64,000 nucleotides of DNA from NCBI GenBank assembly GCA_030704615.1, contig CM060732.1:16306001-16370000 (forward strand), given 5' to 3'. Of this stretch, positions 8,686 through 64,000 are shown piece after piece. This DNA comes from Takakia lepidozioides (lineage: Eukaryota; Plantae; Bryophyta). Positions within the stretch are counted from its first letter, which is position 1. Every line of letters begins with the position of its first letter. Position numbers and translations under genes: made by a program. The notes below the pieces were generated by a model. It searched no databases. It had not been told where the DNA came from and worked only from the letters and a program-made list of their open reading frames with translations.

Positions 8686-9200
8686 GTGCCACCAGTTGCT
8701 GAGGAGAGTGCTGGTACGAGCACCAGCGATACTAGTGGGTATACAAGACGAGATGTGCGGTTTAGACCACCTTCACCTTCAGTGTCTTCTGAGGAAGGTT
8801 CAGACTCAGAGTTAGGAAGATTCTCGCCGAGGGTGCAAGCCATTTCCGTGCCATTGTTGTGGGATACGATGGAGGAAATGTATGGAGCTACCAAGGGGCC
8901 ACGTCGGTACTCTGGAGCTGTGGGCACCATCGAGCTTGATGATTTCATACATGAGTTTGATAGTTGGTGTGATTTGCAGCAGATGCGCAATCCACAACTG
9001 TTTATGCCTTTTTATGGCGTGGAAGTGGCTGTTTCAGCACCTTGAGGGGCCGCCCATGGATGACTACCATGAGTTTAGGCGGGGACATGAGGTGGAGATT
9101 GAGGAATGGTGGGTGTATTGGTCACCTGACTATATTTCCATCACTAGAGGCAGAAGGGCAGTGGTGACACCGGCAGCTACACCGGCAGCTTTTGCAAGTA
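8686..9200 (+). pseudogene. Retrotransposon gag N-terminal fragment
   Basis: RYSG..GTIELDDFIHEFDSWCD...AWKWLFQHLEGPPMDDY resembles the retrotransposon gag capsid N-terminus; frameshift near 9010; truncated. Confidence 0.5.
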
Positions 9201-16072: not shown

Positions 16073-16074
16073 CT

Positions 16075-28600: not shown

Positions 28601-29245
28601 GATACGTTACCTTCCTGACTAGAAATTTGGCATAGTCGAGAGCAGCCAGCTCGGAGCGAGAACCATCGGGTGATGTTGCCGTAGGAGCTGCACAATGGAC
28701 CGGGTTGGAGTTATGCTCGAGGGTACATGCGTAGCACCTATAGAGACGTCCATGTCGGATTTGAACGACCATGTGGAGGACATGGGGACCTCAATGCACT
28801 CATCTTCCTCGTCGGAAATGTCGAATACGTCCACACAAGAAGCTATGGAGGGTCTTGATGGTCCAAGTCGGGAATGATTATCGTTGCATACCTCTCTGTT
28901 GGCAGTGGCCGCCTGTCAGTTTCCGGACTCCTTTGTGGATGGTGTGGGCAGCGACTGATTCGGAAAGGGAATGGGCATTCCCACAGCTCGGTACAGGATG
29001 GTGACTGATGGGGGTACGTGCCATTCGATTTCGCAACCTCCGTCATTACCTAGCACGACAATGGTCTCGTCAACCTGTCCAGGAACATCCTTCCTTTCTT
29101 CTTCCAAATAAACTGTGCCCGGTTTGAGCTTGAATTTGGAACAAAGGTAAGTTTCACTCACTCTGCAAAGTCCTCCCTCGTTTGGGATCCAGGCTCTCCC
29201 AAGTTGCGGAGGACAACAAACTATAGCGTAGGAATTCGGAGCCAT
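25630..29245 (-). pseudogene. MULE-type transposase (N-terminal domain, GCM-like zinc domain, DDE core, C-terminal SWIM)
   Basis: DGHPWC..C..C..C..CTHC..C..HVGVHCH; VMFDH, FMVDNAQA, CGFH, TNMAES; CNC...CPCK SWIM-like; several stops and frameshifts. Confidence 0.75.
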
Positions 29246-30397: not shown

Positions 30398-30959
30398 TCA
30401 TTGTGCTCCCCATTAACTCCCACAGAAAAGAGTATGCATTTTATCCAAAGCAAAGAGCTTGGCCGAGATCTTTATATGCTATTTGAGGACCCTATGACCA
30501 GGTTGCCGACGCTGTGCCTGCATTTTAAAATACACAAATTGCCACATTAACTGATTCACGTTAAAGAGACAGGGGTGGTTGACAGCAGTGTCTGCCTTCT
30601 TATGGATATCATCGTATCCCCCCTTTCATGTATAGTTGTGTGTGTCCTTTCTATCTTGCAATAGTATCTTTGTATCTCATCCATCAGAGACCACCTATGC
30701 TTGTCCCAAAATTTGGACAACCCGTATAGGAATTTAACACAGCTAGAAAACACACATGTAAATTTGGGCCTACTGTGGTCAGATAAGGGAAGGGCGGGGG
30801 GTGGGGACCAGCTGCACTCTGGTGGCATGCAATGAGTCAGTGAGGTTAGATAGTTAGATAGCCAACGGTAGTCAAAGCCATCGGTGCATAGCACACCCTT
30901 ACGGCCATTGGAAATAATTTATCCGTCATTACACCCCCAAACCGCCAGGACGCAATCCT

Positions 30960-42058: not shown

Positions 42059-42558
42059 NNNNNNNNNNNNNNNNNNNNNNNNNNNNNNNNNNNNNNNNNN
42101 NNNNNNNNNNNNNNNNNNNNNNNNNNNNNNNNNNNNNNNNNNNNNNNNNNNNNNNNNNNNNNNNNNNNNNNNNNNNNNNNNNNNNNNNNNNNNNNNNNNN
42201 NNNNNNNNNNNNNNNNNNNNNNNNNNNNNNNNNNNNNNNNNNNNNNNNNNNNNNNNNNNNNNNNNNNNNNNNNNNNNNNNNNNNNNNNNNNNNNNNNNNN
42301 NNNNNNNNNNNNNNNNNNNNNNNNNNNNNNNNNNNNNNNNNNNNNNNNNNNNNNNNNNNNNNNNNNNNNNNNNNNNNNNNNNNNNNNNNNNNNNNNNNNN
42401 NNNNNNNNNNNNNNNNNNNNNNNNNNNNNNNNNNNNNNNNNNNNNNNNNNNNNNNNNNNNNNNNNNNNNNNNNNNNNNNNNNNNNNNNNNNNNNNNNNNN
42501 NNNNNNNNNNNNNNNNNNNNNNNNNNNNNNNNNNNNNNNNNNNNNNNNNNNNNNNNNN
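42059..42558. other. Assembly gap (500 N)
   Basis: Run of N. Confidence 1.
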
Positions 42559-43430
42559 CAGAGGGATGAGACTGCACGACGCGTTTCACTTCGCCATGTT
42601 GCTCAGTTGGTGCAGCGGTACCCTGAGTTGTTTTGTCGGTGTCTGCAATTTGTGGATATCAGCAGGCCTTGCCAGCAGACATTTCGTTGCTGGGGGCGCA
42701 GGATTTGGAGCGGTTGGCTCCATTGATCTTGTAGTTGGGCAGGTTGGCCCTGCCAAGGGCATTCATCAGCCGGGCATGGCAATGGATTGCGAGACTCGAG
42801 GTCGGGTCTGTTTTGGGAGATGGTGCGGGTTTTGCGCCACTTGCAGCTTCATCAAGCTGTATCTCCAGCATACATCTTGGAGAATGTGCCACTGATGGGC
42901 GATTCTCGGGCCAGGGGTGATGGCCAGTGTGCATCAAGTCCGGTCGTGGCTTGGGTCAGCAGTGTTGCTAGATGCAGCTACAGTGGGGTCACGGGCTCAT
43001 CGTCCACGGCTATGGTGGACTAACTTGATGCCACCCGCACTGCTCAAGCGTGCATTTGATGGGGTGCAGCGGCCAGCACATCTCACAGTGGATAACATTC
43101 TGGACACAGGGAGGCAGTCTCAGCGTGTGAGACACGATGACCGTTCGCCTTTGGCAGTGGTCAACAAGGTGGGTCAACCACGAGCAGCATTACCTACACT
43201 GCTCAGCTTCCCAGGATCGCATGCTTTCCGGGATAGTGGACCTGGCCTCCTGTGGGGATGCTCAGTTGCAGCAGTTAGTGGAGCCTAATGCTGACGAGCG
43301 TGAGCGGGCAATGGGTTTTACCACTGGTACCACGGCGGTGTCGTCTCTTTCTGAGGCATCACGTCGTCAAGTGTTGGGGCAAGCAATGGATCTCAATTGC
43401 TTGACCTGGATTATCAGCTTGGCTTGGCTG
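42559..43430 (+). pseudogene. DNMT3-like C5-methyltransferase domain, frameshifted copy
   Basis: GWPCQG, YILENVP, AHRPRLWWTN, ERERAMGF and LGQAM in shifting frames; nearly identical to 62610-63470. Confidence 0.88.
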
Positions 43431-46400
43431 AGCAACGCAGAGTCGGAGTACACTTCCCTCAATGGTCTCTCTGCCTACCGAGACGGTACAGGCAGTGAGT
43501 GGGGGCGAGCATGTGAGGACCACAGGGTGCATGCATCCATGCACACGTGGAGTGGGAGATGCTCGAGGTTCAGAAGGAGTTGGCAGCCAAGGCGGCTGTG
43601 ATGGATGAGGTTGGGGATTCTTCTCGGGTGAGGAGGTCCTCAAGGATGAGATGATGGGGCAGGATGAGGCCTTGTCATTGACTGAGCAGGCAGGGAGTAC
43701 TGCTCAAGAGATTGCAACATAGCAACCACTGGACGCGTCCTCTACCTCTAAGCCCACTGGACTTAAGGTTGCAGTTACAGAGGACAATTGGGAGCCTGAC
43801 ATTGGACCCATTGTCACCGGAGGAGAGAGACGACGTATACGGCGGTTCCTGAGGGCTTACAGGAATTGCTTTGCCTTCAGTTTGAAGGACTTGGGAGCAC
43901 TGAAGGGTCAAGAGATCCGTATTGAGTTGGCCACTGACACGCCAATCTTTCGGAGACCCTATAGATACAGTGACATGGAGAGGTCTTTGATTCAGATGAG
44001 GACTCAAGATCTCTGGGAGGCAGGTTTGGTGGAGCTCTCTGGTGGAGAGTATGCTTCAGCCACAGTGATGCCAGCCAAGAAGGATGTCTATGGCAATTGG
44101 ACGGAAAGACGTATGTGCGGTGATTACCGGCCTGTAAATCGTCAGACCAAGTCCGATAAGTATGCCATGCCAACACCAGTGGAGATCTTTGATGCCATCG
44201 GGCATGCTAAAGGTCTTTAGCACTTTGGATTTACGATCCGGATATCACCAGTTGCCAATCAAAGAGGCGAACAAGCAGAAGACGCATTCTGGGGGATCAA
44301 TGAGCACGGCAAGGATTGCCTATATCAGTGGCGGTTCTTATCATTTGGGCTTAAGAATGCTCCTGCAGAGTTTTCAGAGAGTCATGGATAGGATTCTAGC
44401 AGGGGTGGACTTTGCTCGGTGCTACATAGATGACATCATCATCTTTAGTGTTACGATGGAGGAGCATGAGAGACACCTTCAGGTGGTATTGGAGCGCTTG
44501 AGAGCGCACGGATTGAAGTTGCATCCGGGGAAGTGCAAGTTTTTCCACAACCAGATTGAGTATCTGGGTCACATGATATATCCTGGAGGATTGGGGGTAC
44601 AGCAGACTAAGGTAGAGGCCATTGCACAAATTCCACGCCCCACGGATGTGAGCCGAGTTCGAGCTTTCATGGGGTTGGCAAACTATTATAGACGGTTTGT
44701 CAAGGGATTTAGTACCATTGCAAAGGCTCTAACAAGCTGACCAAGGTGGACAGGAGTGGCAGTGGGAAGATGAGCAGGAACGAGCTTTTCAAGAGCTCAA
44801 GGCGAGGTTGACCTCGGCACCTATCCTGAGACGACCTATCAGGGGGCGTCCCTTTCAGCTGCATACGGATTGGAGCATGCTGGGGCTTGGAGCGGTGCTC
44901 ACATAGGTGGATGATGAGGGAAGAGAGTTCGTAGTGGCTTATGCTAGCCGCTCGAACAACGCTGCAGAGGCTAAATACAGCTCATATGAGGGAGAGTGCT
45001 TAGCTGCAGTGTGGACCGTGGCACACTTCAGGTGCTATCTATACGGCAATCTCTTCACCCTTGTCACGGATCACTAGCCACTCAAGTGGTTGATGGAGTC
45101 AGACAAGCTTATGGGGAAGCTTGCACGGTGGGCACTCATACTCCAGGAGTATGACTTTCAGGTTGTGCATCGACCGGGTTTGGTCAATCGGGATGCGGAT
45201 GGATTGAGTCGCAATCCATGCACGAGCCAGCAAGATGACACTGGAGCTCGGTGGCATGGTGAGACGGACGAGGAGATGATGCCGGGATGGCATGCATCTG
45301 CCTTTTTGTGTATCTTGGCATCAGGAGGTCAGGTTGGACCTACAACAGGGATGACTGTAGACAGAGTGTCTGAGGACCCTGAGGCTAGTGATGAGCCAGG
45401 TGGTACCAGAGATATACATGAGGATTCGGCTGTGTTGGACTACCTCCGTACTGGAGACAGGGCAGCCACTATGACTGCCAATCTTTTCACCCTTGTCACG
45501 GATCACCAGCCACTCAAGTGGTTGATGGAGTCAGACAAGCTTACGGGGAAGCTTGCACGGTGGGCACTCATACTCCAGGAGTATGACTTTCAGGTTATGC
45601 ATCGACCAGGTTTGGTCAATCGGGATGCGGATGGATTGAGTCGCAATCCATGCATGAGCCAGCAGGATGACACAGGAGCTCGGTGGCATGGTGAGACGGA
45701 CGAGGAGATGGTGCCGGGATGGCACGCATCTGTATTTTTGTGTATCTTGGCATCGGGAGGTCAGGTTGGACCTACAATAGGGATGACTGTAGATGGAGTG
45801 TCTGAGGACCCTGAGGCTAGTGATGAGCTAGGTGGTGCCAGAGATATACATGAGGATTCGGCTGTGTTGGACTACCTCCGCACGGGAGACACGGCAGCCA
45901 TTGTGACTGCCAGGGAGAGGGATCGGATCCTGCAACGAGCCAAGAGGTTCAAGTGGGAGGGGATACACCTACTTCGAGTGTGGGAGGATGGTCGGATGAG
46001 GATTGTGCCTCACCCCACACAGCGTGCACGGTTAGTGCGGCATGCCCATGAGGAATTGGGGCATTTTGGAGTGCGACGCACTCACAGTTTACTGCAGGGG
46101 CAGTATTGGTGGCGTGGTATGCATACAGAGGTGCAACAGTTCGTGGCTAGGTGCATGGTGTGTGACAGGGTGCGTGCTTCATTCAACGCCCCTATACCAC
46201 AGTTGCATCATTTACCAATCATGGGATTGGGCTATAGGTGGAGTCTTGACTTCGCAGGACCGTTGCCACTGACTATGCGCCACCACAGATATGTGTTGGT
46301 GATGGTGGAGCACTTCTCCAAGTGGATTGAGTTGGTTCCATTGCCTGACAAGGCTAGTGAGGGGGCTGCGTATGCATTCTAGGATCGTGTGCTTAGCCGA

Positions 46401-47145
46401 TTTGGTGCTCCAGCTGAGGTACTCACGGACCAAGGGAGAGAGTTCTTGGGGGAGTTTCAGGCTTTTGTGTGATAAAGCCTTGATAGGCCACCGCACCACT
46501 TCTCGGGATCATCCTGAGGCCGATGGCTTAGCAGAGAGAGTTGTTCAGACGGTGAAGAGGGGTTTGCGCAAGTATGGCTTGCAGAAGGGACACCTAGGAG
46601 ATTGGGATCTTCAGGTTCCTTGGTTAGCCATGGGCTACAGGTTCAGCAAACAAGCATCACTTGCCTCCTTCTCACCATATTTCCTTCTCTTTGGCCGAGA
46701 GCCGGATTTGCCTGCAGCCATTCGTAGGGACACTGCTCAAGTCCTTAACCTTGACGACCCGGACGTGTGGGTACGTGCATGTGATCAGCGTACAGAGTTG
46801 TTCAAGAAAGTCATGCCCATGGCTTTTGAGAACCTTGCCATTGCACAGCACCGTGATACGTTGAGGTATGCCACTATACGTGGTGGAGGATATCGTCCTG
46901 GGGTTCAGAGGTTTAGCCCTAGTGACTATGTTTATTTGCAGCAGACTGCTCCTACGACTCTGGATGTTACTGCAGGGCGTGTTATTCTGAGGGTTCGAGA
47001 GGTGTTGCCCTCAGGGGTCCTGATCTTGGAGGGTCGGGATGGCATGACTTGGAAGGACCATGTGCGTAATTGTGCGCCATGTCACCTTCCCAATGTCGAT
47101 GGCAGAGTTGACCCAAACTTGGTAGTGATACCTGCAGGTTTGAGG

Positions 47146-47280
47146 TGCATGCTCTGTGGGTCTGCCAAAGGGGCAGCCACCATGCTGGTGTGTGATCGAT
47201 GCTCAAGGGGTTGGCATATGGGATGCTTGACACCACCTCTTGAGAAGGTTCCTGACGGAGATTGGTTGTGTCCACACTGC
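47146..47280 (+). CDS. PHD finger at the integrase C-terminus
   Basis: CMLC-x10-CDRC-x4-HMGC-x-PPL..VP.GDWLCPHC, a canonical C4HC3, in frame with the integrase core (ORF 46327-47289). Confidence 0.92.
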
Positions 47281-47549
47281 TTGGGATAGTGGCAGTGGAC
47301 ATGACTGGAGGCAGCTAACAAGACATGGGAGGCCAAGCTCATATGAGTCAATACATGAGATCCCAAGCTCAAGTTCACAGGTTGCAAGACGGCGACTAAC
47401 GATGGGGCAACTCTTGCACCCGGCCTCTTGATCTATCGAGTTTGAGTGTAGTAGGGATAGTGGTGGAGGACTTAGTGAGGCTATGGTCACTATCACATCT
47501 TGTGGCTACCTGGACTTAGAGGGACCTAAGCACCAGCTAGGGGGGCGAT

Positions 47550-47738
47550 TGTGTGGACTAGTGACTGCCATAGTGGGCAGCATAGTGGCAGCCTAGTGAC
47601 TGACTAGTTGTAGCCTAGTGGTTGGACTAGTGGTTGGACTAGTGGTAGACTAGTGGTATACTAGTGTGTGGTGTGCACATGTGTTGTGTGGTTTTTGGAC
47701 AGCGATGTAGTTGTGTAGCGATATGTATGCGCACGACA
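47550..47738 (+). mobile_element. 3' LTR (189 bp) of the DNMT-Gypsy
   Basis: TGTGTGG...CACGACA right after the PPT; repeated at 48059-48247 and partially at 59067-59177. Confidence 0.88.
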
Positions 47739-47740
47739 GC

Positions 47741-48058
47741 TGTCAAGTTATTTTACCACTAGTGTGAAACTAGCTAGGAAATAGCTAGCTTTTACATATT
47801 GACATTTGGGATTGGCCCAAGTGTCAATCCAGGGGTCAAGGCAGATTTAGGCCCTGAAGTGGTTATCTTCACGGCAAGCGCGGAAGGCTCATCTTTCTCG
47901 AGTTGAGCCTCACCGCGCCTAGCTATGGCGCCGTAGTGTGGATTCCCCATGGCGTGGGGTGCACTTGGCTTGACTTGTATTTGAGTGATGAGGTTATATA
48001 TGCATGAGTTTATGCTTCAGATTTGTGAGCTCGTGCTTGTATTCTTCTTCTTTATCAT
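47741..48058. mobile_element. LTR-like fragment related to 5900-6200
   Basis: Starts TGTCAAG; shares motifs with 6030-6180. Confidence 0.35.
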
Positions 48059-48247
48059 TGTGTGGACTAGTGACTGCCATAGTGGGCAGCATAGTGGCAG
48101 CCTAGTGACTGACTAGTTGTAGCCTAGTGGTTGGACTAGTGGCTAGACTAGTGGTGGACTAGTGGTATACTAGTGTGTGGTGTGCACATGTGTTGTGTGG
48201 TTTTTGGACAGCGATGTAGTTGTGTAGCGATATGTATGCGCACGACA
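48059..48247 (+). mobile_element. Isolated LTR of the DNMT-Gypsy family
   Basis: Near-identical to 47550-47738; abuts chromovirus integrase sequence; no clear TSD. Confidence 0.85.
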
Positions 48248-49292
48248 ATTGCATCGAATCCTTTTGACAGTGGCATAGCAGTCATGAAATCCATCGAGAC
48301 ACTTTCCCAAGACCCCTCTGGAATCGGCAAGGGTTGTAACAGCCCCGCTTGCCTTTTGTACTCGCTCCGGTTTTGTTGGCATGTGGTGCATGTCTTGACA
48401 TACTCCTCAGCCTCCTCCCTCAATTTGGGCTAGAAATATTCTTTCTTCAAGAGTGCCGCGGTGTGCTTGGCTCCGCCGTGGCCCGCAAGCGGGCCATCAT
48501 GGCATTCTCTCAAGAGACTATCCCTGATCCCTCCTTTCGGCACGTAGAGACGCTTTTGCTTGTACCGGAGCAGTCCATTTTGCAAGTGGAACTGCGATTT
48601 AACCCCCATCCTCAAGTCCCGCATCATGGACTTCGCCATCTCATCCTTCCGGTAAGCCTTCCAGATCTTCCTTTGGTGCGCCGTCTTGCCCCTGTACACC
48701 AACATGAGCTGCTGCTTTCTACTTAAAGCGTCGGCCACCACATTGTCCCGTCCCGGTTTGTACTGGATATCCACGTCAAACACTGCCAAAGTGTCTTGCC
48801 ACCTAAGTTGTTTTGGGGACAACTTAGGCTGTGTGGCAAAATACTTCACCGTGACATTGTCCGTGAACACCTTCACCGGGTTGGAACCAACATAGTGACG
48901 CCAAAGCTCAAGGCAATGCACCACCGCCTTCATCTCTTTCTCGTGCGTTGGCCACCGTCGCCCACTTCATTCAGTTTCTTACTTTCGTAAGCCACTGGAC
49001 GTCCATCCTACATCAGCACACCCCCAATTGCGAAGTCCGACGCATCTGTTGAATGTCAAATGGACGGTCAAACTCCGGAATTTTCAAGACTGGAGCTTCT
49101 GCCATCCGCTTCTTCAACTCGGCAAAAGCTTGGCCACAAAAGGTGTTCCATACCCATACTTTGGATTTACACAAAAGGTCCGACAGCGGCCCCGCAATCT
49201 TCGCGAAATTTCTCACATACTTTCGGTAATAGGAGGCGAGTCCTAGGAAGGATCGCACTCCCGGGACCAAAGTCGGAGGCTCCCAGTCCAAG
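48248..49292 (-). pseudogene. Chromovirus-like Gypsy pol fragment (RT connection, RNase H, integrase N-terminus)
   Basis: [19 protein letters not shown] nearly identical to 18627-18965; FTDN, NVVADALSR, CHDGPLAGHGG, CTTCQ, WESVSMDF. Confidence 0.9.
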
Positions 49293-50756
49293 TTCGGTGC
49301 CATTTTTCCATCCGGAGGATGATCTCTATCGGCCATGTGTCGGCCTCTCCCTCCCAGATGACTTCAACCGAATGCCCTCGGATGGAAATTCGGCGCTGTT
49401 TTTCCATCCGGGGGATGTTCTCTGTCGGCCAAGTGTCGGCCTCTCCCCCCGAGATGACTTCATGCGGGCGGCCTCGGATGGAAATTCGGCATCGTTTTTC
49501 CATCCGGAGGATGATCTCTGTCGGCCATGTGTCGGCCTCTCCCTCCGAGACGACTTCATCCGAACGGCCTCGGATGGAAATTCAGCGCCGTTTTTCCATC
49601 CGGGGGATGTTCTCTGTCGGCCAGGTGTCGGCCTCTCCCCCCGAGACGACATCATCCGAGCGGCCCCAGATGGAAATTCGGCGCTGTTTTTCCATCCGGG
49701 GGATGTTCTCCGTTGGCCAGGTGTCGGCCTCTCCCCCCGAGACGACTTCATCCGGGCGGCCTCGGATGGAAATTCGGCGTCGTTTTTCCATCCGAAGGAA
49801 AATCTCTGTCGGCCATGTGTCGGCCTCTCCCCCCGAGACGACTTCATGCGGGCGGCCTCGGATGGAAATTCGGCGCCATTTTTTCATCCGGGGGATGTTC
49901 TCTATCGGCCATGTGTCGGCCTCTCCCCCCGAGGCGACATCATCCGAGCGGCCCCGGATGGAAATTCGGCGCCGTTTTTCCATCCGGGGGATGTTCTCTG
50001 TCGGTCAGATGTCGACCTCTCCCCCCGAGACAACTTTATCCGGGCGGCCTTGGATGGAAATTCGGCGCCGTTTGTCCATCCGGAGGCTGATCTCTGTCGG
50101 CCATGTGTCGGCCTCTCCCTCCGAGACGACTTCATCCGAATGGCCTCGGATGGAAATTCGGCGCCGTTTTTCCATCCGGGGGATGTTCTCTGTTTGCCAG
50201 GTGTCGGCCTCTCCCCCCGAGACGACTTCGTGCGGGCGGCCTCGGATGGAAATTTGGCACCATTTTTCCGTCCGGAGGATGATCTCTGTCGGCCATGTGT
50301 CGGCCTCTCCCTCCGAGACGACTTCATCCGAACGGCCTCGGATGGAAATTCGGCGCCGTTTTTCCATCCGGGGGATATTCTCTGTCGGCCTCTCCCCTCG
50401 AGACAACATCATCCGAGCGGCCCCGGATGGAAATTCAACGCCATTTTTCCATCCGGGGGATGTTCTCTGTCGGCCAGGTGTCGGCCTCTCCCCCCGAGAC
50501 GACTTCATCCGGGCGGCCTCGGATGGAAATTCATCGCCGTTTTTCCATTCGGAGGATGATCTCTGTCGGCCATGTGTCGGCCTCTCCCTCCGAGACGACT
50601 TCATCCGAATGGCCTCGGATGGAAATTCGGCGTTGTTTTTTCATCCGGGGGATGTTCTCTGTCGGCCAGGTGTCGGCCTCTCCCCCGAGACGACTTCATG
50701 CGGGCGGCCTCGGATGGAATTTCGGCGCCGTTTTTCCATCCGGGGGATGTTCTCTG
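49293..50756. repeat. 96-bp tandem array (about 15 units), each with the near-palindrome GGATGGAAATTCGGCGCCGTTTTTCCATCC
   Basis: Units at about 49380, 49476, 49572 ... 50340, one shortened unit, then 50425-50712. Confidence 0.95.
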
Positions 50757-51011
50757 GCAGGCACGTGGGGCCGTTACCCTCCGATTTGACGCATGTCGAA
50801 TTAAATCCTGCCCCTCATTCCTGGGTACGGTTATATGGAATATTGCTCTTTTTCTTTGCCACTTGCCCGACCTTCTCTCGTGACCCACGCGTTTCAAACC
50901 GAGACAGCAACAACACTTCCTCGCTCCGAGCTGCTCTCACTTCAGCTTCCCCACACTCCCCCCTCCCTGCGCACCCTGTCTGCTTCCTGGCAGCCCTTTC
51001 AATAGTCGGCG

Positions 51012-51578: not shown

Positions 51579-52165
51579 GAACAGTGCAACACGGGAGCAA
51601 ATTTCCAACTTACTTGAGCATGGATTGCATGCATACTTTTGGCTTCCCTCGGTTTGTGAGGGCATGCATACTTGTCACAGTTCATTATTAATAAATATTA
51701 ATAATGTCTCCTTTGAAGCAAAGTTCCACTTTTTGTGCAATGTTGCATTTTGTTGAATGTTGACTTTTGGCAACGAGGGTCTGGCAGTCAATCTTGCAAT
51801 CAGACCCACCGGAATGCCACCTCTGTCAGTTCCCTCTATCAATGGGGAAGGTGCTTGCACGCTCGCCCCCCACGCTTCTTGTCGGACGCCCCAATTATTG
51901 GTTTGCGCAGCGCATCTGCATTGGTCATATACCTTCTGACTAAATACCGTTGGCAGTTATTGCGCAAAGGCCAGGGGCCGCATTCCGGAGACAATGTTCA
52001 TTAACACTCTAACAGTGGATTTTTGGGAGAGTGGGCTCCCCGGATTTGTGAATAGGCTTCGTCGCTCAGAAAAATCGGCCCTGCATTCCTTCCCCTCGCT
52101 GCATCCCCCTTCTCCCAGGGTGCTTGCCCGAATGCCATCCTCGCAATCTTGTGTGCACATCTCCC

Positions 52166-55100
52166 ATGGCAGAAAACCTGAGCGCTATAGTTTACTGCCC
52201 TCCTCACGAGCATAGAGCTACATTTCCGTGCAGAGGGTACATCTGTTGGGTGATGGAGAAATATCTCTGCGTTCGATACCACCTGAAACCGGGGTCGGTA
52301 TTTTTGGAGGAGGAAAGGAAGGATTCAAACGGAGTTGTAGTTGAAAGTATTGTTGTGCTCCACGATGATTTCGGCAACGGCAGGGAATGGCGAGTTCCAC
52401 CATCGGACAACGTCATATACAGGGCTGTTGGGGACTTCATTTGCCCGCCAAATGTACCTTCTATCCTGGCGCCTTCTACGAAACAATCCGCGAATCAGAG
52501 ACTAGGTACCTCAAAGAGAGAAGTCCGCAATGAAGTAAATCCAGGGCCGACCCCATCAATGAAGATGAGCGAGAACCGGGTTGTTCACAACCTGTCCGAC
52601 TTAGACGAGGTCATGGAAGTTCCAAGATCATCCAGGAGATAAGGAAAGTCCTCAATGGACATCAGCGGACGAGGGAGTCATATTCCCAACACGAGCTCAG
52701 CAATTCGATCCATTCTTGAAATTTTGCAAGGGCTTCACATGGAGGGACACTGCTCGGAGCTGGCTGGGCTGGACTACAACAAGTTCGCAATTAAATCCGT
52801 TACATGCCTTCCCGCAGACGTCGACGGTAATATCTTCTTGAGTTCCCTCCTCGAACGGACTATTCGAGGGCGTCCGGAATGTTGACAGATATGGATAGGA
52901 AACATGACGGTCATCCTTGGTGCGTCACCAAAACCACCAGCATGAAGATGCTCGATGGTGTGCGGGTGCGCTACGTTGTTTGTGCGGGCGCGTTGCGGTG
53001 TTTCTCTCCAACTTGCTTTCACTTTAAATCCAGAGGTCACAGGAACGAGACGGATTGGACAGGCACAGCTCATCAACCATTTCGAGCTCCGGAGAAGGTT
53101 CCAAACTCCACATTTAAGTGTGCGCATTGCAAAGAACCACCACATTGCATGTCTGTTTGTAATGCCAAGCAGTTCTATGTGCTGCACCGTTTCCCTGACC
53201 TCACACGAGCTTGCATACACGTTGGTTCCCATTGTCACAAATTGGCGAGGGGGAACTCGCGGGAGGCTGCCCACGAGGCAGAGCAGCTCGTGCAGGAGGA
53301 GGTTAAGTTGAGACCTGGTGCCAAACCCAAACAGATACAGCTGCAGGCCGCCCATAAGATGGCATTGGCCATAATTATGTCGGAAGACGGCTCCGACAGA
53401 GTTCCTCTCGATGAGAAGGAAATGGAGGCATTGTTGGAGTTCGTGTCCCATGTCTGTTCACCGAATGTCCGAAACTACATTCATGGAAGTAGGTTTCTAG
53501 GACAAGGGACTGAGGCAGATCGTTGTTTTGTATTCAAAATGTCCACGTGTGGGCCTGGCAGTGGCATCGAACTAGTCCACCGGATGACGAGTGGGGACTG
53601 TCAAACAGTTGGGTCATGTTCGACCATATCAAGCGAATTATAAATCACCAGTGGGTGACAATGGGTGCACATGTCTACGACACCCACTGCAGGATGCTAA
53701 TGACAATTGCTATTTGTGAGATGAAAGGAGAGGACACACAATCGGAGATGCTTCTTTGGCAGGGAATAAACGAACAGATGGCCAGGGCAGGATTGCCCCC
53801 TCCCAATTTCCGAGGTTTCATGGCGGACAACGCACAAGCAAATTGGGCTGCCATCCAAAGGGTGTACGGGGAAGACCCCAATGTTCCTATGAAAGACAAG
53901 GAGAGATCTTGTGGGTTCCATTTTCTGCATAGCTTGTCGCAGTACACAACCAGGCTTGTGGTGCCAGATTTCAGAGAGGAGCACCGTTCCATGTGTCTTG
54001 CGTGGAAGCGTGCTCCCACCTTAGATGATGCAGAGACACAGTTTGCATGTATACGGGCTTGGTGGACAACTTCAGGTGCTGTAAAGAAATCAGACGAGGG
54101 AGCAATGGTCAGTTGGCTAACATGGTGGCATTATCATTTCCTCTAGTTCGGCGACATATGCGGGAGGTGAGTTGGACGAATTTGCGTCCCGTTGAATATT
54201 ATGCTACTCGTTCTTTGTAACTTGCTAACCTGAACATGTGCAAGTGCAGGAAATGTGTCTCGACTCCGACACCGACATGCCGACAACAAACATGGCCAAA
54301 TCAGTACATTCTTCCTGGCGTGCCTCCTCTGCGGCGCATCTAGTGGACATCCTCACTGCCACAACAGAGGACATTGTGAGGTCAATTATGCAGCAATGTA
54401 GGTACAACGAGTTCTTGAAAGGGAAACAGTGGGGCTTGGGGCCCGACAGGCAGGAAATGCTGATGCGGACTACCTCCAGATTGAAGAATCCTCGGAAGTG
54501 GGTGGCAGCCTTGCGAGAGGGCCTTCGGGACACGCCATTGCTTCGAAGAGGCCAACACTTGGAAGGAGATGTTCACACCCGTCCAGTGAAACGAAGACTT
54601 GACGAGGCACCTGGCGGAGAAGAGGATTCATGGCGAGCTGACAAGAATATTCACACGCTCCCTCGTGGTCCCGTGATGTTGCCCGAGGAGGTCTCGTTGA
54701 GCATCGCAAGTCCTGCACGTTCAAGATCGCCATCTCCTTTGAGCACAGGGCACGTGCCCGAAGAACATAACGAGCCATCTGTAGTAACGTAATACAACAT
54801 ACTCATTGTGGAGACAAGAGTGTCGGAGTCACAGTGGAGAATTGCAAGGACATTGCCGGCATTTTGAAGGAAGTGTTGCGCCATCCAGGTGGATACGAGA
54901 GCACGTTGTGGTGAGATGATTCAGAGGAACCCACACGGTGCTGTACCTGTACATTGTTTCAGCGACAGATTTTTTACTCCCACATTTGCTCACGCCACAA
55001 CGCAAACATTTTGGTTCTGTAGGCACGACATAATGACTTGTGTATTTGGCAAGCCCAAGTACGGGATTCAGGGAATGCCGGAGCCTCTGGGCGTCTGGCC

Positions 55101-55668
55101 TGTTGCACCGGGTTGCAACCTCTCTCAGATTGAGGCGGATGCTCTTTCTGCAGCAGAATTTTGAATGGTGCAACGCACAGACGTCCCGGCCCACGCATTT
55201 CCAGTTCCTCAGACCCAACCATTGCAGACTGCTTGGTCCAGTAGAGACGGATTGGACAATTATGCACATCCCACAATGCGATTCAGAAGAGTGAAGAGAC
55301 GACACCCTCCCAACAAGTTGAATGAGACTCGGATTGCCAATGCTCTTGGGATGGCTTGCACTATTCAGAGCTCCGTGGACGTACCCCCACCCGGCCTTGG
55401 GCGTGTTTATCGGATGGCAACGGCCGGTTCAGCTGTACGCGACGATGTATACACAATTACAATTGGAGTAGAGCCGACTTACAATTGTACGGATTTCTTG
55501 TTGATGGAAGCAAAGAAGGGTTCAAAGTATTATCCGTGCAAACATCTATATTACATTTACCTGAAGAGGTTAAGGATGAACTTGACTATTGATGACTTTA
55601 TTCATGCACCAACGTTGAGCGTGAATGAGCTGCACAAACTCCTCCGCCGGGATTCCAGAAATCATTGA
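52166..55668 (+). pseudogene. MULE-type transposase (GCM-like, DDE, SWIM), degenerate
   Basis: Colinear with copy 1; VMFDH, FMADNAQA, CGFHF, TNMAKS (catalytic E changed to K); probable intron at about 54167-54249; YPCKHLY SWIM. Confidence 0.78.
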
Positions 55669-57380: not shown

Positions 57381-58129
57381 AGTTCTGAGTATCTTGCACA
57401 GGAGAGTGGTAATGTGCTGAGTGGCAATCGTTCAAGAAATAGCATGGAAGAGTACTGTGGGGGAGATAATGGTAGTGAGGCATGTACATGAATATCTGGA
57501 TAAATGTATTTTAGATCAATGGTATCGAGGGCAAAGGCCCTTAAGTCACAAATAAGTGAGCTAGAGCAACAATTCACAGTTTTTGTAAACTGAACAAACA
57601 CTTGATCACAATGCGGGAAGAGGTAATTCACAGCAGTGGTGACTAGGGCAGAAGCTCTTGAGTGATAGATCTGTGGGTAGCAACAATTCACAATACTTCC
57701 AGCAAGAGAGAACATTTGATCAATGAGTGGAGACAGATGTTTCACAACAATGGAGATGAGGGCAAAAGCTCTCGAATAACAAACATGATGGGAGTAGCAA
57801 TTCATAGGATTTGGAACAAGCTGAAGAGGTTGTCTGAGGCCAGATTTACAGCTAATAGGGGTGAAAACATGGCTTAAGGGGGTGGGAAGCAATTTCTTGT
57901 GCAGGGGGGGGTGCCTTCATATCTGAATCGTATGGATGCGGTGTCCAACGGCGTGTTCCTTGAGTGTGGCTGTTGTGCCCTGTCAGTTCAGTCCAGTCAT
58001 AATGGTAAGAACGTGCAAGCATTACAGGGTTCGTTAATCCAAGTGCAACGTGAGCTGATAGTTGGAATGGAAAGCACGGGAGATAGCATATGCAGCAGGT
58101 AGAGTTACTAGTTCCCTTGGTTGGTTGTC

Positions 58130-58900
58130 AGGAGTGTTTGGTACAACTACAGCAAAACCAGCTCTGAAGATGTCGCCATGGACCTCTTTGCCCTTTTCCA
58201 GAACTGCCAGGGCAGTGTGTAGAGTGACATCTGGTACAACTACAGCAAAACCTGCAAGCATCGCATTCCACGACACCACAACTCGTTCAGCCATAGTCTC
58301 AAACACTCCCTTTGCATCGTCGATGCACCCACATTTTGCATACATGTCCACCAGGGTATTGTTTAGAATGACAGTTGGTACAATTCCAGCTCTGAAGATG
58401 TCGCCATGGACCTCTTTGCCATTTTTCAGATCTGCCAGGGTAGTGTGTAGAGTGACATTTGGTACAACTGCAGCAGGACCTTTAAGTATCGCATTCCATG
58501 ACACAACATCTTGTTCAGCCATAGTGTCAAACATTCCTTTTGCATCGTCGATGCACCCACATTTTGCATACATGTCCCCTAGGGTATTGTTCAGAATGAC
58601 AGTTGGTACAATTCCAGCTCTGAAGATGTCGTCATAGACTTCTTTGCCATTTTCCAGATCTGCCAGGGCAGTGTGCAGAATGACATTTGGTACAACTCCA
58701 GCAAAACCTGCAAGCATCGCATTCCACGACACCAAATCAAATCAGCCATAGTGTCAAACACTCCCTTTGTATCCTCGATATACCCACATTTTGCATACAT
58801 GTCCATCAGGGTATTGTTCAGAATGACAGTTGGTACAATTCCAGCTCTGAAGATGTTGCCATGGACCTCATTACCCTTTTCCAGATCCGCCAGGGCAGTG
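58130..58900 (-). pseudogene. Tandemly repeated PLS-class PPR fragment
   Basis: About 3.5 units of about 240 bp: GKEVHGDI..GIVPTVILNNTLVDMYAKCGCIDDAKGVFDTM..DVVSWNAML; one frameshift near 58740. Confidence 0.85.
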
Positions 58901-59066
58901 TCTTTAATCACAAAAGAAGAGTTGCCACTGAGAAGCTTCACATCTGCTGTGATTAGTGTGGTATAGGTGGATGTGACCTGCTGGGGCAGAATAGGTACAG
59001 TGGATCCGTTTGTTGTAGAGAAACATAGCAGCAGTGGAACTCAGGGGCGAGACAGAGGGGGACCAA

Positions 59067-62000
59067 CACACCACACACTAGTATACCACTAGTCCACCAC
59101 TAGTCCAACCACTAGGCTACTAGTCAGTCACTAGGCTGCCACTATGCTGCCCACTATGGCAGTCACTAGTCCACACAATCGCCCCCCTAGCTGGTGCTTA
59201 GGTCCCTCTAAGTCCAGGTAGCCACAAGATGTGATAGTGACCATAGCCTCAGCATGCTCTGTGGGTCTGCCAAACGGGCAGCCGCCATGCTGGTGTGTGA
59301 TCGATGCTCAAGGGGTTGGCATATGGGATGCTTGACACCACCTCTTGAGAAGGTTCCTGACGGAGATTGGTTGTGTCCACACTGCTTGGGATAGTGGCAG
59401 TGGACATGACTGGAGGCAGTTAACAAGACATGGGAGGCCAAGCTCATAGGAGTCAATACACGAGATCCCAAGCTCAAGTTCACAGGTTGCAAACTGCAGT
59501 CACATCCAGGGTCGTAGGAGCAGTCTGCCGCAAATAAACATAGTCACCAGGGCTAAACCTCCGAACCCCAGGACGATATCCTCCACCACGTATAGTGGCA
59601 TACCTCAACGTATCACGGTGCTGTGCAATGGCAAGGTTCTCAAAAGCCATGGGCATGACTTTCTTGAACAACTCTGCACGCTGATCACATGCATGTACCC
59701 ACACGTCCGGATCGTCAAGGTTAAGGACTTGAGCAGTGTCCCTACAAATGGCTGCAGGCAAATCCGGCTCTCGGCCAAAGAGAAGAAAATATGGTGAGAA
59801 GGAGGCAAGTGATGCTTGCTTGCTAAACCGGTAGCCCATGGCTAACCAAGGTACCTGAAGATCCCAATCTCCTAGGTGTCCCTTCTGCAAGCCATACTTG
59901 CGCAAACCCCTCTTCACCGTCTGAACAACTCTCTCTGCCAAGCCATCGGCCTCAGGATGATCCCGAGAAGTGGTGCGGTGATCTATCAAGGCTTTATCAC
60001 ACAAAGCCTGAAACTCCCCCAAGAACTCTCTCCCTTGGTCTGTGAATACCTCAGCTGGAGCACCGAATTGGCTAAGCACACGATCCAAGAATGCATACGC
60101 AGCCCCCTCACTAGCCTTTTTAGGCAATGGAACCAACTCAATCCACTTGGAGAAGTGCTCCACCATCACCAACACATATCTGTGGTGGCACATAGTCAGT
60201 GGCAATGGTCCTGCGAAGTCAAGACTCCACATGTAGCCCAATCCCATGATTGGTAAAGGATGCAATTGTGGTGTAGGGGCGTTGAATAAAGCACGCACCC
60301 TGTCACACAGCATGCACCTAGCCACGAACTGTTGCACCTTTGTATGCATACCACGCCACCAATACTGCCCCTGTAGTAAACTGTGAGTGCGTCGCACTCC
60401 AAAATGCCCCAACTCCTCATGGGCATGTCGTACTAACCGTGCATGTTGTGTGGGGTGAGGCACAATCCTCACCCGACCATCCTCCCATACTCGGAGCAGG
60501 TGTATCCCCTCCCATTTGAACCTCTTGGCTTGTTGTAGGATCCGATCCCTCTCCTTGGCAGTCACAGTGGCTGCCCTGTCTCCAGTACGGAGGTAGTCCA
60601 ACACAGCCGAATCCTCATGTATATCTCTGGTACCACCTGGCTCATCACTAGCCTCAGGGTCCTCAGACACTCTGTCTACAGTCATCCATGTTGTAGGTCC
60701 AACCTGACCTCCCGATGCCAAGATACACAAAAAGGCAGATGCATGCCATCCCGGCACCATCTCCTCGTCCGTCTCACCATGCCACCGAGCTCCAGTGTCA
60801 TCTTGCTGGCTCGTGCATGGATTGCGACTCAATCCATCCGCATCCCGATTGACCAAACCCGGTCGATGCACAACCTGAAAGTCATACTCCTGGAGTATGA
60901 ATGCCCACCGTGCAAGCTTCCCCATAAGCTTGTCTGACTCCATCAACCACTTGAGTGGCTAGTGATCCGTGACAAGGGTGAAGAGATTGCCGTATAGATA
61001 GCACCTGAAGTGTGCCACGGCCCACACTGCAGCTAAGCACTCTCCCTCATATGAACTATACTTAGCCTCTGCAACGTTGTTCGAGCGGCTAGCATAAGCC
61101 ACTACGAACTCTCTTCCCTCATCATCCACCTATGTGAGCACTGCTCCAAGCCCCAGCATGCTCCAATCCGTATGCAACTGAAAGGGACGCCCCCTGATAG
61201 GTCGTCTCAGGATAGACACCGAAGTCAACCTCGCCTTGAGCTCTTGAAAAGCTCATTCCTGCTCATCTTCCCACTGCCACTCCTGGTCCACCTTAGTCAG
61301 CTTGGTTAGAGCCTTTGCAATGGCACTAAATCCCTTGACAAACCGTCTATAATAGTTTGCCAACCCCATGAAAGCTCGAACTCGGCTCACATCCGTGGGG
61401 CATGGAATTTATGCAATGGCCTCTACCTTAATCTGGTATACCCCCAATCCTCTAGGATATATCATGTGACCCAGATACTCAATTTGGTTGTGGAAAAACT
61501 TGCACTTCCCCGGATGCAACTTCAATCCGTGCGCTCTCAAGCGCTCCAATACCAACTGAAGGTGTCTCATGCTCCTCCACTGTAGCACTAAAGATGATGA
61601 TGTCATCTATGTAGCACCGAGCAAAGTCCACCCCTGCTAGAATCCTATCCATGACTCTCTGAAACTCTGCAGGAGCGTTCTTAAGCCCAAATGGTAAGAA
61701 CCGCAACTAATATAGACAATCCTTGCCATGCTCATTGATCCCCCAGAATGTCGTCTTCTCCTTGTCCGCCTCCTTGATCGGCAACTGGTGATATCCGGAT
61801 CGTAAATCCAAAGTGCTAAAGACCTTAGCATGCCCAATGGCATCAAAGATCTCCTCCGGTGTGGGCATGGCATACTTATCGGACTTGGTCTGACGATTTA
61901 CAGGCCGGTAATCACCGCACATACGTCTCTCCGTCCAATTGCCATAGACATCCTTCTTGGCTGGCATCACTGTGGCTGAAGCATACTCTCCACCAGAGAG

Positions 62001-64000
62001 CTCCACCAAACCTGCCTCCCAGAGATCTTGAGTCCTCATCTGAATCAAAGACCTCTCCATGTCACTGTATCTATAGGGTCTCCAAAAGATTGGCGTGTCA
62101 GTGGCCAACTCAATACGGATCTCTTGACCCTTCAGTGCTCCCAAGTCCTTCAAACTGAAGGCAAAGCAATTCCTGTAAGCCCTCAGGAACCGCCGTATAC
62201 ATCGTCTCTCTCCTCCGGTGACAATGGGTCCAATGTCAGGCTCCCAATTGTCCTCTGTAACTGCAACCTTAAGTCCAGTGGGCTTAGAGGTAGAGGACGC
62301 ATCCAGTGGTTGCTATGTTGCAACCTCTTGAGCAGTACTCCCTACCTGCTCAGTCAATGACAAGGCCTCATCTTCCCCATCATCTCATCCTCGAGGACTT
62401 CCTCAACCTGAGAAAAATCCCCAGCCTCATCCATCACCGCCACTTTGGCTGCCAACTCCCTCTGAACCTCGAGCACCTCCCACGTGTGCCATGGATGCTT
62501 GCACCCCGTGGTCCTCACATGCTCGCCCCCACTCACTGCCTGTACCATCTCGGTAGGCAGAGAGACCAGCGAGGGAAGTGCACTCCGCACTCTGCGTTGC
62601 TCAGCCATAGCCAAGTTGATAATCCAGGTCAAGCAATTGAGATCCATTGCTTGCCCCAACACCTGACGACTTGCTGCCTCAGAAAGAGACGGCACCGCCG
62701 TGGTACCAGTGGTAAAACCCATTGCCCGTTCACGCTCGTCAGCATTAGGCTCCACTAACTGCTGCAACTGAGCATCCCACAGGAGGCCAGGTCCACTATC
62801 CCGGAAAGCATGCGATCCTGGGAAGCTGAGCAGTGTAGGTAATGCTGCTCGTGGTTGACCCACCTTGTTGACCACTGCCAAAGACAAACGGTCATCGTGT
62901 CTCACATGCTGAGACTGCCTCCCTGTGTCCAGAATGCTATCCACTGTGAGGTGTGCTGGCCGATGCACCCCATCAAATGCACGCTTGAGCAGTGCGGGTG
63001 GCATCAAGTTAGTCCACCATAGCCGTGGACGATGAGCCCGTGACCCCACTGTAGCTGCATCTAGCAACACTACTGACCCAAGCCATGACCGGACTTGATG
63101 TACACTGGCCATCACCCTGGCCCGAGAATCGCCCATCAGTGGCACATTCTCCAAGATGTATGCTGGAGATACAGCTTGATGAAGCTGCAAGTGGCGCAAA
63201 ACCCGTACCATCTCCCAAAACAGACCCGACCTCGAGTCTTGCAATCCATTGCCATGCTCGGCTGATGAATGCCCTTGGCAGGGCCAACCTGCCACTACCA
63301 GATCAATGGAGCCAACCCGCTCCAAATCCTGCGCCCCCAGCAACGAAATGTCTGCTGGCAAGGCCTGCTGATATCCACAAACTACAGACACCGACAACAA
63401 CTCAGGGTACTGTTGCACCAACTGAGCAACATGGCAAAGTGAAACGCGTCGTGTAGTCTCATCCCTCTCCACATACAGGTAACGCCGAACTCGTACACCT
63501 GCCTGTAACACAGCAGCCAATCCGGTGCTGATCCCGCCAAACAAGTCCAGAAGACAAATGCCTTCATCCGGATACTGCCACACAATAGGTGTGATATCCA
63601 ATGGTGACAACTGAGGTGGTCCTGGTGCAATCCCCACACTCTCCTCCTCTCCTGATGGTACAAAAGCCTCCACCCAGGCTTGTTGCACCCGTCGATCAGC
63701 AACCCGTTGCAAATCCTTGCTTGTGCCCCATAATGGAGTCTGAGCAACCATGGCAGGCAACTCTGCCATACCATACATGTCATCCTACTCTCCTGGAGGT
63801 GTGTCATCCTCTGAATGAGCGTTGCCCTCTAGCAATTCTCCAGGCCAAGTCACTGCAGCTGTGAATGCTGCTAGTGTCGGCATCTCGCCCCGCTGGGCAA
63901 CCGCAACTCCTCCTATGAACGTCACAGGGAGCTGCACATGCCGGCCCTCCCCTGACTGCCATCCAGGCCTATAGGAAGCTGACTCCTCCCAAAAATCCAG
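59067..64000 (-). mobile_element. Ty3/Gypsy LTR retrotransposon with DNMT and PHD, copy B (continues beyond the window)
   Basis: Protease-end-like sequence (64000-63910), DNMT, RT (62150-61400), RNase H, integrase (60946-59493), inverted PHD segment, PPT (59178-59192), truncated LTR (59177-59067). Confidence 0.93.
62354..63778 (-). CDS. DNMT3-like C5-cytosine DNA methyltransferase within pol (catalytic domain about 62610-63560, uninterrupted)
   Basis: Motif I LDLFGGIST, II YVERD, IV DLVVAGWPCQG (catalytic Cys at 63278-63280), VI ILENV, VIII HRPRLWW, IX ERERAMGF, X LGQAM, in linear DNMT3 order rather than the permuted DRM order. Confidence 0.93.
   Translation of the reverse strand: MYGMAELPAMVAQTPLWGTSKDLQRVADRRVQQAWVEAFVPSGEEESVGIAPGPPQLSPLDITPIVWQYPDEGICLLDLFGGISTGLAAVLQAGVRVRRYLYVERDETTRRVSLCHVAQLVQQYPELLSVSVVCGYQQALPADISLLGAQDLERVGSIDLVVAGWPCQGHSSAEHGNGLQDSRSGLFWEMVRVLRHLQLHQAVSPAYILENVPLMGDSRARVMASVHQVRSWLGSVVLLDAATVGSRAHRPRLWWTNLMPPALLKRAFDGVHRPAHLTVDSILDTGRQSQHVRHDDRLSLAVVNKVGQPRAALPTLLSFPGSHAFRDSGPGLLWDAQLQQLVEPNADERERAMGFTTGTTAVPSLSEAASRQVLGQAMDLNCLTWIINLAMAEQRRVRSALPSLVSLPTEMVQAVSGGEHVRTTGCKHPWHTWEVLEVQRELAAKVAVMDEAGDFSQVEEVLEDEMMGKMRPCH

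Follow-up and report, generated by a model that had tools for sequence, protein, structure and literature searches.

A Ty3/Gypsy retroelement that is present as two broken copies, A and B, in the bryophyte Takakia lepidozioides carries a DNMT3-like C5 cytosine methyltransferase (DNMT) between its protease (PR) and reverse transcriptase (RT). The copies lie in a 64,000-nucleotide stretch of contig CM060732.1 (assembly GCA_030704615.1, positions 16,306,001 to 16,370,000 of the forward strand), called the window here, and have the domain order PR-DNMT-RT-RH-IN, where RH is RNase H and IN is integrase, with a PHD finger in copy A. Comparison with relatives places the DNMT as the last domain of a predicted first open reading frame (ORF1, Gag-PR-DNMT), upstream of a conserved in-frame stop, and RT, RNase H, integrase, and the PHD finger are very probably made by readthrough of that stop. 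The DNMT would then be made at the level of Gag, since it precedes the stop between ORF1 and RT. The overall reading, in which an ORF1-borne DNMT supplied at Gag level and a leaky stop serve methylation of the element's own complementary DNA (cDNA), is offered as an even bet.

The methyltransferase domain and the stop codon behind it

Both copies feature TAG CAA CCA in the RT frame, 72 nt upstream of the RT match, with the TAG at 62315-62313 in copy B and at 43720-43722 in copy A.

62307..62315, minus strand: in-frame TAG followed by CAACCA (UAG-CAR-YYA), where readthrough from ORF1 into RT-RH-IN-PHD is predicted, copy B (junction alignment, motif of PMC3542737)
43720..43728, plus strand: TAG-CAACCA junction, copy A (junction alignment)

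The initial annotation had placed the DNMT directly before RT; RT is indeed the next domain downstream, however, this TAG intervenes and is conserved in relatives. Its treatment of the DNMT as an ordinary Pol domain does not hold for this clade, where the domain closes ORF1. UAG-CAR-YYA is described as the type I readthrough motif of tobamoviruses, which also works with UAA, and leaky stop contexts are reported to yield 0.3-5% readthrough (PMC3542737). In-frame gag-pol stops are described for Tj1, Tosmo, Tca2, and type C retroviruses such as murine leukaemia virus (MLV), and Tj1 requires its stop (PMC4600332, bioRxiv 2022.12.06.519325).

The junction was compared in 58 metagenome loci, a further locus, L059, and the two window copies, 41 of which hold it. 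A stop followed by CARYY stands at the homologous place in 31 of these 41 (25 TAG and 6 TAA), 54-75 nt before RT. As background, CARYY follows 60 of the 5,238 TAGs in the loci, true junctions counted in. The stop-bearing elements form about five lineages: the window (CAACCA), L003/L032/L033 (CAACCA and CAACTA), a large set resembling Sphagnum protein P0036 (CAACCC), L019/L021 (CAGTTA), and L041/L053/L059 (CAATCA). The DNMTs of the last two are ~50% identical to that of the window, and junction flanks between the deeper lineages are only ~30-60% identical. Four different YY pairs occur among the five lineages, and the hexamers code for Q-P, Q-L, or Q-S; since the second codon varies between Pro, Leu, and Ser while CARYY stays, the constraint appears to act at the nucleotide level. 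The full UAG-CAR-YYA consensus is exact in the window and three other lineages. The spacers between DNMT and RT measure 282, 327, 339, and 408 nt, all of which keep the frame, as does that of L059. Database proteins of 1,150-1,380 aa consist of Gag-PR-DNMT and end ~70-125 aa past the DNMT. These ends are in agreement with a DNMT that closes the predicted ORF1, the Marchantia junction being known from protein models alone.

Among 40 of 386 listed contig differences from the window, none falls at the junction stop. A stimulatory RNA structure after the stop is unsupported: relative to shuffled bases z ranges from -0.0 to -3.1, and no fold is common to the sequences. A 2,173-nt contig of run X12, which is presumed to be RNA but may be DNA, spans the junction unspliced and is not used as evidence. 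A candidate -1 frameshift site near 62410 was dropped, as the shift is a copy-level indel and relatives remain in frame.

In copy B the DNMT is a stop-free domain of 331 aa, residues 70-400 of a 476-aa ORF.

62585..63577, minus strand: DNMT3-like C5 cytosine methyltransferase domain, last domain of predicted ORF1 (PF00145, PDB matches, AlphaFold2/Foldseek, motifs)
62354-63784, minus strand: host ORF of the DNMT domain, 476 aa (open reading frame list)
63550-63527, minus strand: motif I (DNMT alignment, as for all motifs)
63475-63461, minus strand: motif II
63292-63272, minus strand: motif IV (PC)
63157-63143, minus strand: motif VI (ENV)
63037-63008, minus strand: motif VIII (RxR)
62740-62714, minus strand: motif IX
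62659-62642, minus strand: motif X
63914..64000, minus strand: C-terminal end of the aspartic protease region, copy B, with Gag and most of PR beyond the window end (tblastn with P0003)
63785..63787, minus strand: TAG in the PR-DNMT linker of copy B, decay stop (linker comparison)
62354..62380, minus strand: one-base indel near 62374, copy B, which ends the ORF early at 62354 (A/B alignment, family contigs)

The uninterrupted domain with its listed motifs, as first annotated, is confirmed, and the PF00145 profile search suggested with it gives 44.9 bits for the 62354-63784 ORF against a curated cut-off of 22 (E 1.3e-11). The motifs are numbered in the customary way, and their order I, II, IV, VI, VIII, IX, X is unpermuted, unlike that of DRM enzymes. 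At E<=0.001 the domain matches 35 PDB sequences, 29 of them DNMT3A/B/C and 6 of DRM type (4 named DRM2 and 2 named DNA methyltransferase only), and none of the 35 is named as a bacterial enzyme. An AlphaFold2 model made from a 26-sequence input has a pLDDT of 84.4 and a pTM of 0.87, and the Foldseek rows displayed for it are all DNMT3 catalytic domains, with DNMT3A/3B at the top (best E 9e-18). By sequence and predicted fold the nearest solved relatives are DNMT3A/B, which bears out the earlier DNMT3-like label. Neither DUF3444, the host-type C-terminal domain, nor an attached targeting domain is matched by Pfam in the window ORF or in the aligned family members (26 for DUF3444). The domain had been called intact; the open frame and the catalytic motifs stand, but copy B deviates at domain positions 107 and 303, two columns that are near-invariant in the family, and its activity is predicted only.

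The protease tail upstream of the DNMT (64000-63914) matches the PR region of Marchantia protein P0003 at 62% (tblastn, E 4e-10), and Asp_protease_2 matches occur in 14 of 26 aligned family members. Tail and DNMT are in frame apart from one TAG (63787-63785), exactly as annotated. The PR-DNMT linker is in frame in 31 of 34 elements. As 7 of the 34 linkers are entirely stop-free and none of the relatives' linker stretches displayed has a stop at this position, the TAG is decay. Near 62374, copies A and B differ by the one-base indel, and copy B also differs there from many family contigs.

Family range, selection, and phylogeny

A search of longer proteins with the DNMT domain returned 70 matches at E<=1e-10, headed by Calypogeia fissa (73%) and Marchantia polymorpha (60-72% over the full domain length); Sphagnum, Closterium, Chromochloris, and Monoraphidium rank lower. 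A search of near-length proteins gave 243 matches, and the best 120 of 243 that are listed add Marchantia paleacea, Riccia sorocarpa, and Sphagnum tenellum. Among the names in the two lists, where most rows are nameless and only ~8,000 candidates were scored, there is no fern, lycophyte, or seed plant. A representative protein library holds 784 matches at E<=1e-10. Judged from these sequences, relatives of the element are present in Marchantia, Riccia, Calypogeia, Sphagnum, and green algae, and the DNMT is a family trait, which upholds the earlier view that the domain belongs to the element and was not captured once. The land-plant range, also proposed earlier, follows from these named liverwort and moss records, chromosome-scale ones among them, and not from the window. 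Copy A had been taken as proof of a family trait; the same domain does lie there, but copies A and B are not independent witnesses, since they are 96% identical and have two RNase H decay stops in common (61132 and 60961 in copy B), and the proof comes from the relatives.

Five Marchantia Gag-PR-DNMT models of ~1,280 aa fall in one 90% cluster (Mp_4g09160, Mp_Vg00370, Mp_Vg00540, Mp_5g06330, and Mp_5g06860). The V (male) sex chromosome carries 4 of the 15 listed Marchantia cluster members (P0328, P0329, P0330, and P0333). A metagenome scan for the element supplied the 58 loci, and no relative was found in viral contigs. Among 185,579 prokaryote genomes a single match was found, L059 (CADCWO010000201.1), in a bin labelled Synechococcales cyanobacterium. 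This locus is a whole Gag-PR-DNMT-stop-RT-IN element with a TAG-CAATCA junction, and because it is whole and the sole match it is likely a mis-binned eukaryote contig. Protein P0092, labelled Candidatus Obscuribacterales, may be mis-binned in the same way.

The best DNA run has 52,812 contig pieces that align to the stretch. The summed contig depth, which is not a copy number, is 0.84-1.25 million over the DNMT and 0.86-1.36 million from RT to integrase, with one junction bin at 0.59. As these depths are alike, the domain is not absent from most of the family, a condition that the initial annotation had named as a possible refutation. Among 194 full-length DNMT domains compared, down to ~33% identity, 189 retain the motif IV Cys and all 194 the motif VI Glu, while the motif VIII Args are present in 189 and 187. 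The ratio of nonsynonymous to synonymous substitution rates (dN/dS), also proposed as a check, is 0.07-0.24 in the 7 of 15 DNMT pairs with estimable dS, the other pairs being saturated at synonymous sites, and 0.03-0.15 in 4 RT pairs. These values indicate that the DNMT domain is under purifying selection; the set comprises only the 6 of 60 elements in which DNMT and RT are both stop-free, which counts against the reading built on it.

Trees with Shimodaira-Hasegawa-like approximate likelihood ratio (SH-aLRT) support were made for 31 of 75 rows, with near-copies and two thirds of the RT-RH-DNMT-IN group left out and P0007 labelled by placement; FastTree on all 75 rows gives agreeing groups. 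In the RT tree (SH-aLRT 94) as in the DNMT tree (SH-aLRT 95), the stop-bearing elements cluster together as one group, separate in both from the stop-free DNMT-RT forms and from the RT-RH-DNMT-IN forms, and the two trees recover the same groups. In the DNMT tree the window element pairs with Marchantia P0007 (SH-aLRT 99). Stop-free DNMT-RT forms exist outside the stop-bearing clade (P0038, P0199, and L055), and a large sister group features the DNMT between RNase H and integrase (RT-RH-DNMT-IN-PHD; P0042, P0045, P0065, and others, with loci L042, L043, and L047). This layout is complete in 33 of 327 proteins, one of which is named Chromochloris zofingiensis. Since these elements are one group in both trees, the DNMT changed its slot within one PHD-bearing lineage. 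In trees made up of retroelement DNMTs only, the window domain belongs to a large retroelement-DNMT clade that includes algal elements. Because the domain lies inside this clade and is without DUF3444, its recent acquisition from the DNMT3 of a land-plant host is very unlikely.

Element ends, proposed cycle, and alternatives

Two equal terminal long terminal repeats (LTRs) were not found; the ends are A...B-A-B or A...B, and the former 3' end is seen in copy A.

47539..47548, plus strand: polypurine tract abutting repeat B1, copy A (same tract before B in the relatives displayed)
47549..48247, plus strand: 3' end of copy A, B-A-B (self-BLAST)
47549-47738, plus strand: B1, 190 nt
47741-48057, plus strand: A repeat at the 3' end of copy A, after a 2-nt spacer, 317 nt
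48058-48247, plus strand: B2, 98.4% identical to B1

The B|A junction of copy A reads GACA-GC-TGTC, of the general form GACA-NN-TGTC. L037 is a whole A-coding-B-A-B element of 9,210 nt, L015 and L052 show B-A-B, L010 shows A-coding-B-A up to the locus end, and L009, L039, and L022 are A-coding-B. The element starts with TGTC and finishes with the final CA of B. An exact 4-bp target duplication flanks three of the four relatives with both ends (L037, L009, and L039), and in L022 three of the four bases agree. In five of eight copies, all of one lineage, 11 nt after the 5' A are complementary to a site ~31 nt past a TATA box in A. As the polypurine tract abuts B1 and this self-priming complementarity is present, the LTR should be B-A, with A|B as its end-to-end join. 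The A-coding-B-A-B form would then be a two-LTR cDNA circle opened at the internal palindrome GACA-NN-TGTC, and A-coding-B would come from a circle with one LTR or from linear cDNA that was cut at the two palindromes; recombination of B by B would also give A-coding-B. The match is imperfect, with 1-2 mismatches per 11 nt in the five copies, deletion in two, and the junction lost in one, and the predicted mirror form A-B-A-coding-B is absent at all eight 5' ends examined. With both of these points against it, a route in which self-primed reverse transcription gives a B-A LTR and the cDNA circularises and integrates by way of the internal GACA-NN-TGTC site is still somewhat favoured as a reading of the repeats.

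In the proposed cycle the transcript would start from A and ORF1 would give Gag-PR-DNMT, with occasional low-frequency readthrough of UAG-CARYY giving RT-RH-IN-PHD. The DNMT would be packed into particles at Gag-like numbers, outnumbering RT and integrase many-fold, and the protease would free it there to methylate new cDNA before integration, perhaps while circular. That the protease releases the DNMT, that the enzyme is active, and that cDNA is what it methylates are, taken together, a proposition that could equally prove right or wrong. The PHD finger of copy A (E 4.5e-11) has CHD4, KDM5B/5A PHD1, PHF12, and ATXR5 as its nearest solved relatives; PHD fingers of this kind bind unmodified H3 tails, and the finger would tether integrase to such tails. 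The most extended version, in which a DNMT at capsid stoichiometry pre-methylates circular cDNA that the DDE integrase inserts at a palindrome in the LTR, is tentative and would be judged rather unlikely as a whole.

Several findings weigh against the readthrough account and the Gag-level supply that goes with it. Ten of the 41 junctions are without the motif: a sense codon takes the stop position in L022, L026, and L031, the CAR is changed in L029 and L030, the junctions of L040, L048, and L049 are decayed, and L054 and L055, both outside the stop-bearing group, have no junction stop. Because many loci are near-copies, the independent stop-bearing lineages number only ~5. The wider family can do without supply at Gag level, as relatives thrive with a stop-free polyprotein or with the DNMT in the RH-IN slot. 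CAACCC, the hexamer of the largest set, departs from the consensus at the sixth base, and this peat-moss-like set has an ATG two codons past the stop, which would suit reinitiation. Production of RT-RH-IN-PHD by reinitiation, splicing, or a subgenomic RNA, with the DNMT still a product of ORF1, is nevertheless improbable. For splicing, Ogre elements offer an example between PR and RT, and the gene models P0007 and P0036 treat the region as an intron; the introns of such models are, however, predictions, the ATG is missing from the window and three other lineages, the frame is kept at all spacer lengths, and CARYY persists despite the amino-acid change.

The retroelement DNMT of Klebsormidium nitens gave no methylation in yeast, a result that its authors call inconclusive, and de novo CG methylation in yeast is reported for SymbioDIRS-Dnmt3 domains (PMC5890265). 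The observed/expected CpG ratio is 0.50-0.57 in the family and 0.55 in the window, with 0.29 in a LINE and 0.35 in another Gypsy element, and base composition reveals no family-specific CpG or CHG depletion. The K. nitens result and the base composition both tell against self-cDNA methylation. An active ORF1 DNMT could instead act mainly in trans, in the nucleus, on host DNA, on rival elements, or on its own integrated copies as self-limitation. The ORF1 slot gives high output even without particles, the best DNA run contains the family in great abundance, and roles in the host methylome and in self-limitation were raised by de Mendoza et al. (PMC5890265); the DNMT is, however, without an attached targeting domain, the PHD finger belongs to integrase past the stop, and the K. 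nitens methylome is described as ordinary and plant-like (PMC5890265), which leaves this alternative unlikely. The inactivity of the K. nitens domain on yeast DNA (PMC5890265) and the fit of a structural job to Gag-level abundance would favour a domain kept for nucleic-acid binding, as a particle scaffold, or for RNA methylation, but the catalytic Cys, Glu, and Arg are near-invariant across the 194 domains, and such a role is distinctly unlikely. That the domain is a neutral passenger, a one-off capture of a host DNMT3, or part of an algal or bacterial contaminant contig is barely credible. Both window copies are broken and one match lies in a cyanobacterial bin, yet this idea is refuted by the range of the 784 proteins, the chromosome-scale liverwort and moss records, the purifying selection, and the trees. 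Methylation of the element's own cDNA by a Gag-level DNMT remains the reading that is carried forward.

The window copies, their neighbours, and known systems

The family has the Ty3/Gypsy domain order Gag-PR-RT-RH-IN with a DDE integrase. A tyrosine recombinase, the DIRS/Ngaro feature, was not found, and an rve integrase stands in its place; the chromodomain of chromoviruses was not found at the integrase C-terminus, where the PHD finger lies. Copy A (42560-48247, plus strand) is 95-96% identical to copy B and ends in the PHD finger.

42559..43424, plus strand: copy A DNMT domain in three frameshifted pieces, beginning at an assembly gap (N 42059-42558) (tblastn)
43795..47289, plus strand: copy A RT-RH-IN, broken, with a 434-bp tandem duplication and the PHD finger at its end (~47146-47280) (Pfam, self-BLAST)
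61566..62240, minus strand: copy B reverse transcriptase, interrupted by a stop (61709) and by a frameshift near 61564 (RVT_1)
59494..61565, minus strand: copy B RT end, RNase H, and integrase (H2C2, rve), with stops at 61411, 61255, 61132, and 60961, cut at 59494 (Pfam)
59067..59492, no strand assigned: rearranged 3' end of copy B, an inverted PHD-end piece (59252-59492), then polypurine tract and partial B repeat (self-BLAST)
8869..9151, plus strand: third fragment of the family, truncated N-terminus of Gag (P0003 Gag as tblastn query, 70-78%, E 1e-38)

The tandem duplication in the RH-IN region of copy A (45047-45912) has units that are 94.7% identical, and copy A carries many one-base indels beside the N gap, some of which may be assembly errors. 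Transitions between the copies fall per context as CG 0.124 > CHG 0.066 > CHH 0.037, a pattern compatible with ordinary host methylation.

Other features surround the copies. Three tandem 228-nt PPR units, 89-92% alike (58034-58901, minus strand) and presumably of PLS class, adjoin the truncated 3' end of copy B. A DNA transposon is present as two diverged copies (25662-28790, minus strand, and 52052-55668, plus strand) with ~68-70% DNA identity and no Pfam matches, for which only Atlas leads below 0.9 point to MULE/Mutator transposases. A conventional Gypsy element (Gag, RT) at 16062-20263 has a relative at 48430-49295 (minus strand), and its 3' stretch (19347-20263) is 77% like 9387-10352. 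A tandem array of ~106-nt units at 48991-50800 keeps long open frames, and a similar array lies at 29680-30390. The window also features a decayed Gypsy element with Integrase_H2C2 (10969-14264), a LINE-like RT (351-1385), and a PQ-loop fragment (30919-31308, minus strand), for which no homologue was found at E<=1e-8 in the search made.

What retroelement-borne DNMTs do has been a question since 2018, posed in algae that offer few tools. Marchantia polymorpha has long open Gag-PR-DNMT models, filed as hypothetical host genes, and the question is therefore testable with existing mutants and sequencing; if the proposal is true, a pre-methylated, circle-integrating retroelement would be open to study there. 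An enzyme on the abundant side of a leaky stop suggests that the amount of DNMT is important. Permuted ends may be the reason that screens built on paired LTRs would overlook such elements, and they are a hint that integration takes an unusual route. Element copies may also be counted among the host methyltransferases of bryophytes and so inflate their number.

A Gypsy element with a DNMT3 as such is already published for the charophyte Klebsormidium. KnitGypsy-Dnmt3 of K. nitens has DIRS-like repeats and is called an acquisition in the K. nitens lineage by de Mendoza et al. 2018 (PMC5890265), who also put forward the camouflage idea for retroelement DNMTs. It shares with the present family the Gypsy domain set, an unpermuted DNMT3-like domain, purifying selection, and DIRS-like split direct repeats (Fig. 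4c legend), which are seen here in the 3' end of copy A, L037, L015, L052, and L010; the A-coding-B-A-B layout is spelled out for SymbioDIRS (PMC5890265, Fig. 1e). KnitGypsy-Dnmt3 is described with the DNMT inside the Pol ORF, whereas here a conserved stop separates DNMT from RT, and an internal stop, readthrough, a PHD, a target duplication, and an integration model go unmentioned in the passages on it. It is reported from the alga only, with few copies, while the present family is abundant in land plants. Kinship is judged by description, as no named K. nitens protein is among the matches listed. Sarre et al. 2025 (PMC12344493) and Fernandez-Moreno et al. 2026 (bioRxiv) write of 'streptophytes' (Gypsy-DNMT3) and name no land plant in the parts concerned, and the element is not mentioned in passages of Neumann et al. 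2019 (PMC6317226), Yaari et al. 2019 (PMC6453930), PMC10952607, and bioRxiv 363937. In the open-access literature no description was found of Gypsy-DNMT3 in a land plant or of CARYYA readthrough in a DNMT-bearing retroelement; subscription papers, Repbase, and supplements may bear on the novelty of both.

SymbioDIRS-Dnmt3 and SymbioLINE-Dnmt (PMC5890265) and the EpiLTRs of Cymbomonas and Euglena (bioRxiv 10.64898/2026.05.21.726589) are likewise retroelements with a cytosine methyltransferase. They differ in retroelement class, in the DNMT clade (sister to DNMT4), or in having a tyrosine recombinase or DAM and a chromodomain. Host plant DNMT3 (PpDNMT3a/b; Yaari et al. 2019, PMC6453930) has a DNMT3-type catalytic domain in seed-free plants, as here, and carries DUF3444, whereas the present domain is intronless, without DUF3444, and inside a retroelement. 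Tf1/Tj1 self-priming (PMC4600332) resembles the complementarity after the 5' repeat to the site ~31 nt past the TATA box in the relatives; the present family differs in having a PHD finger and no chromodomain, and ends that are permuted rather than two equal LTRs. Tobamo-, beny-, and pomoviruses with type I readthrough (PMC3542737) have the same 3' hexamer as the present junction, and these plant viruses, Tj1, Tosmo, Tca2, and MLV likewise use a single in-frame stop that lowers polymerase relative to the upstream protein. In Tj1 and Tosmo the stop is a TGA between Gag and PR (PMC4600332, bioRxiv 2022.12.06.519325), whereas in the present family it follows Gag-PR-DNMT, so that protease and methyltransferase would both be on the abundant side. 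New here are the land-plant range, the predicted ORF1 slot of the DNMT behind a conserved stop of plant-virus type, and a testable reading of the element ends.

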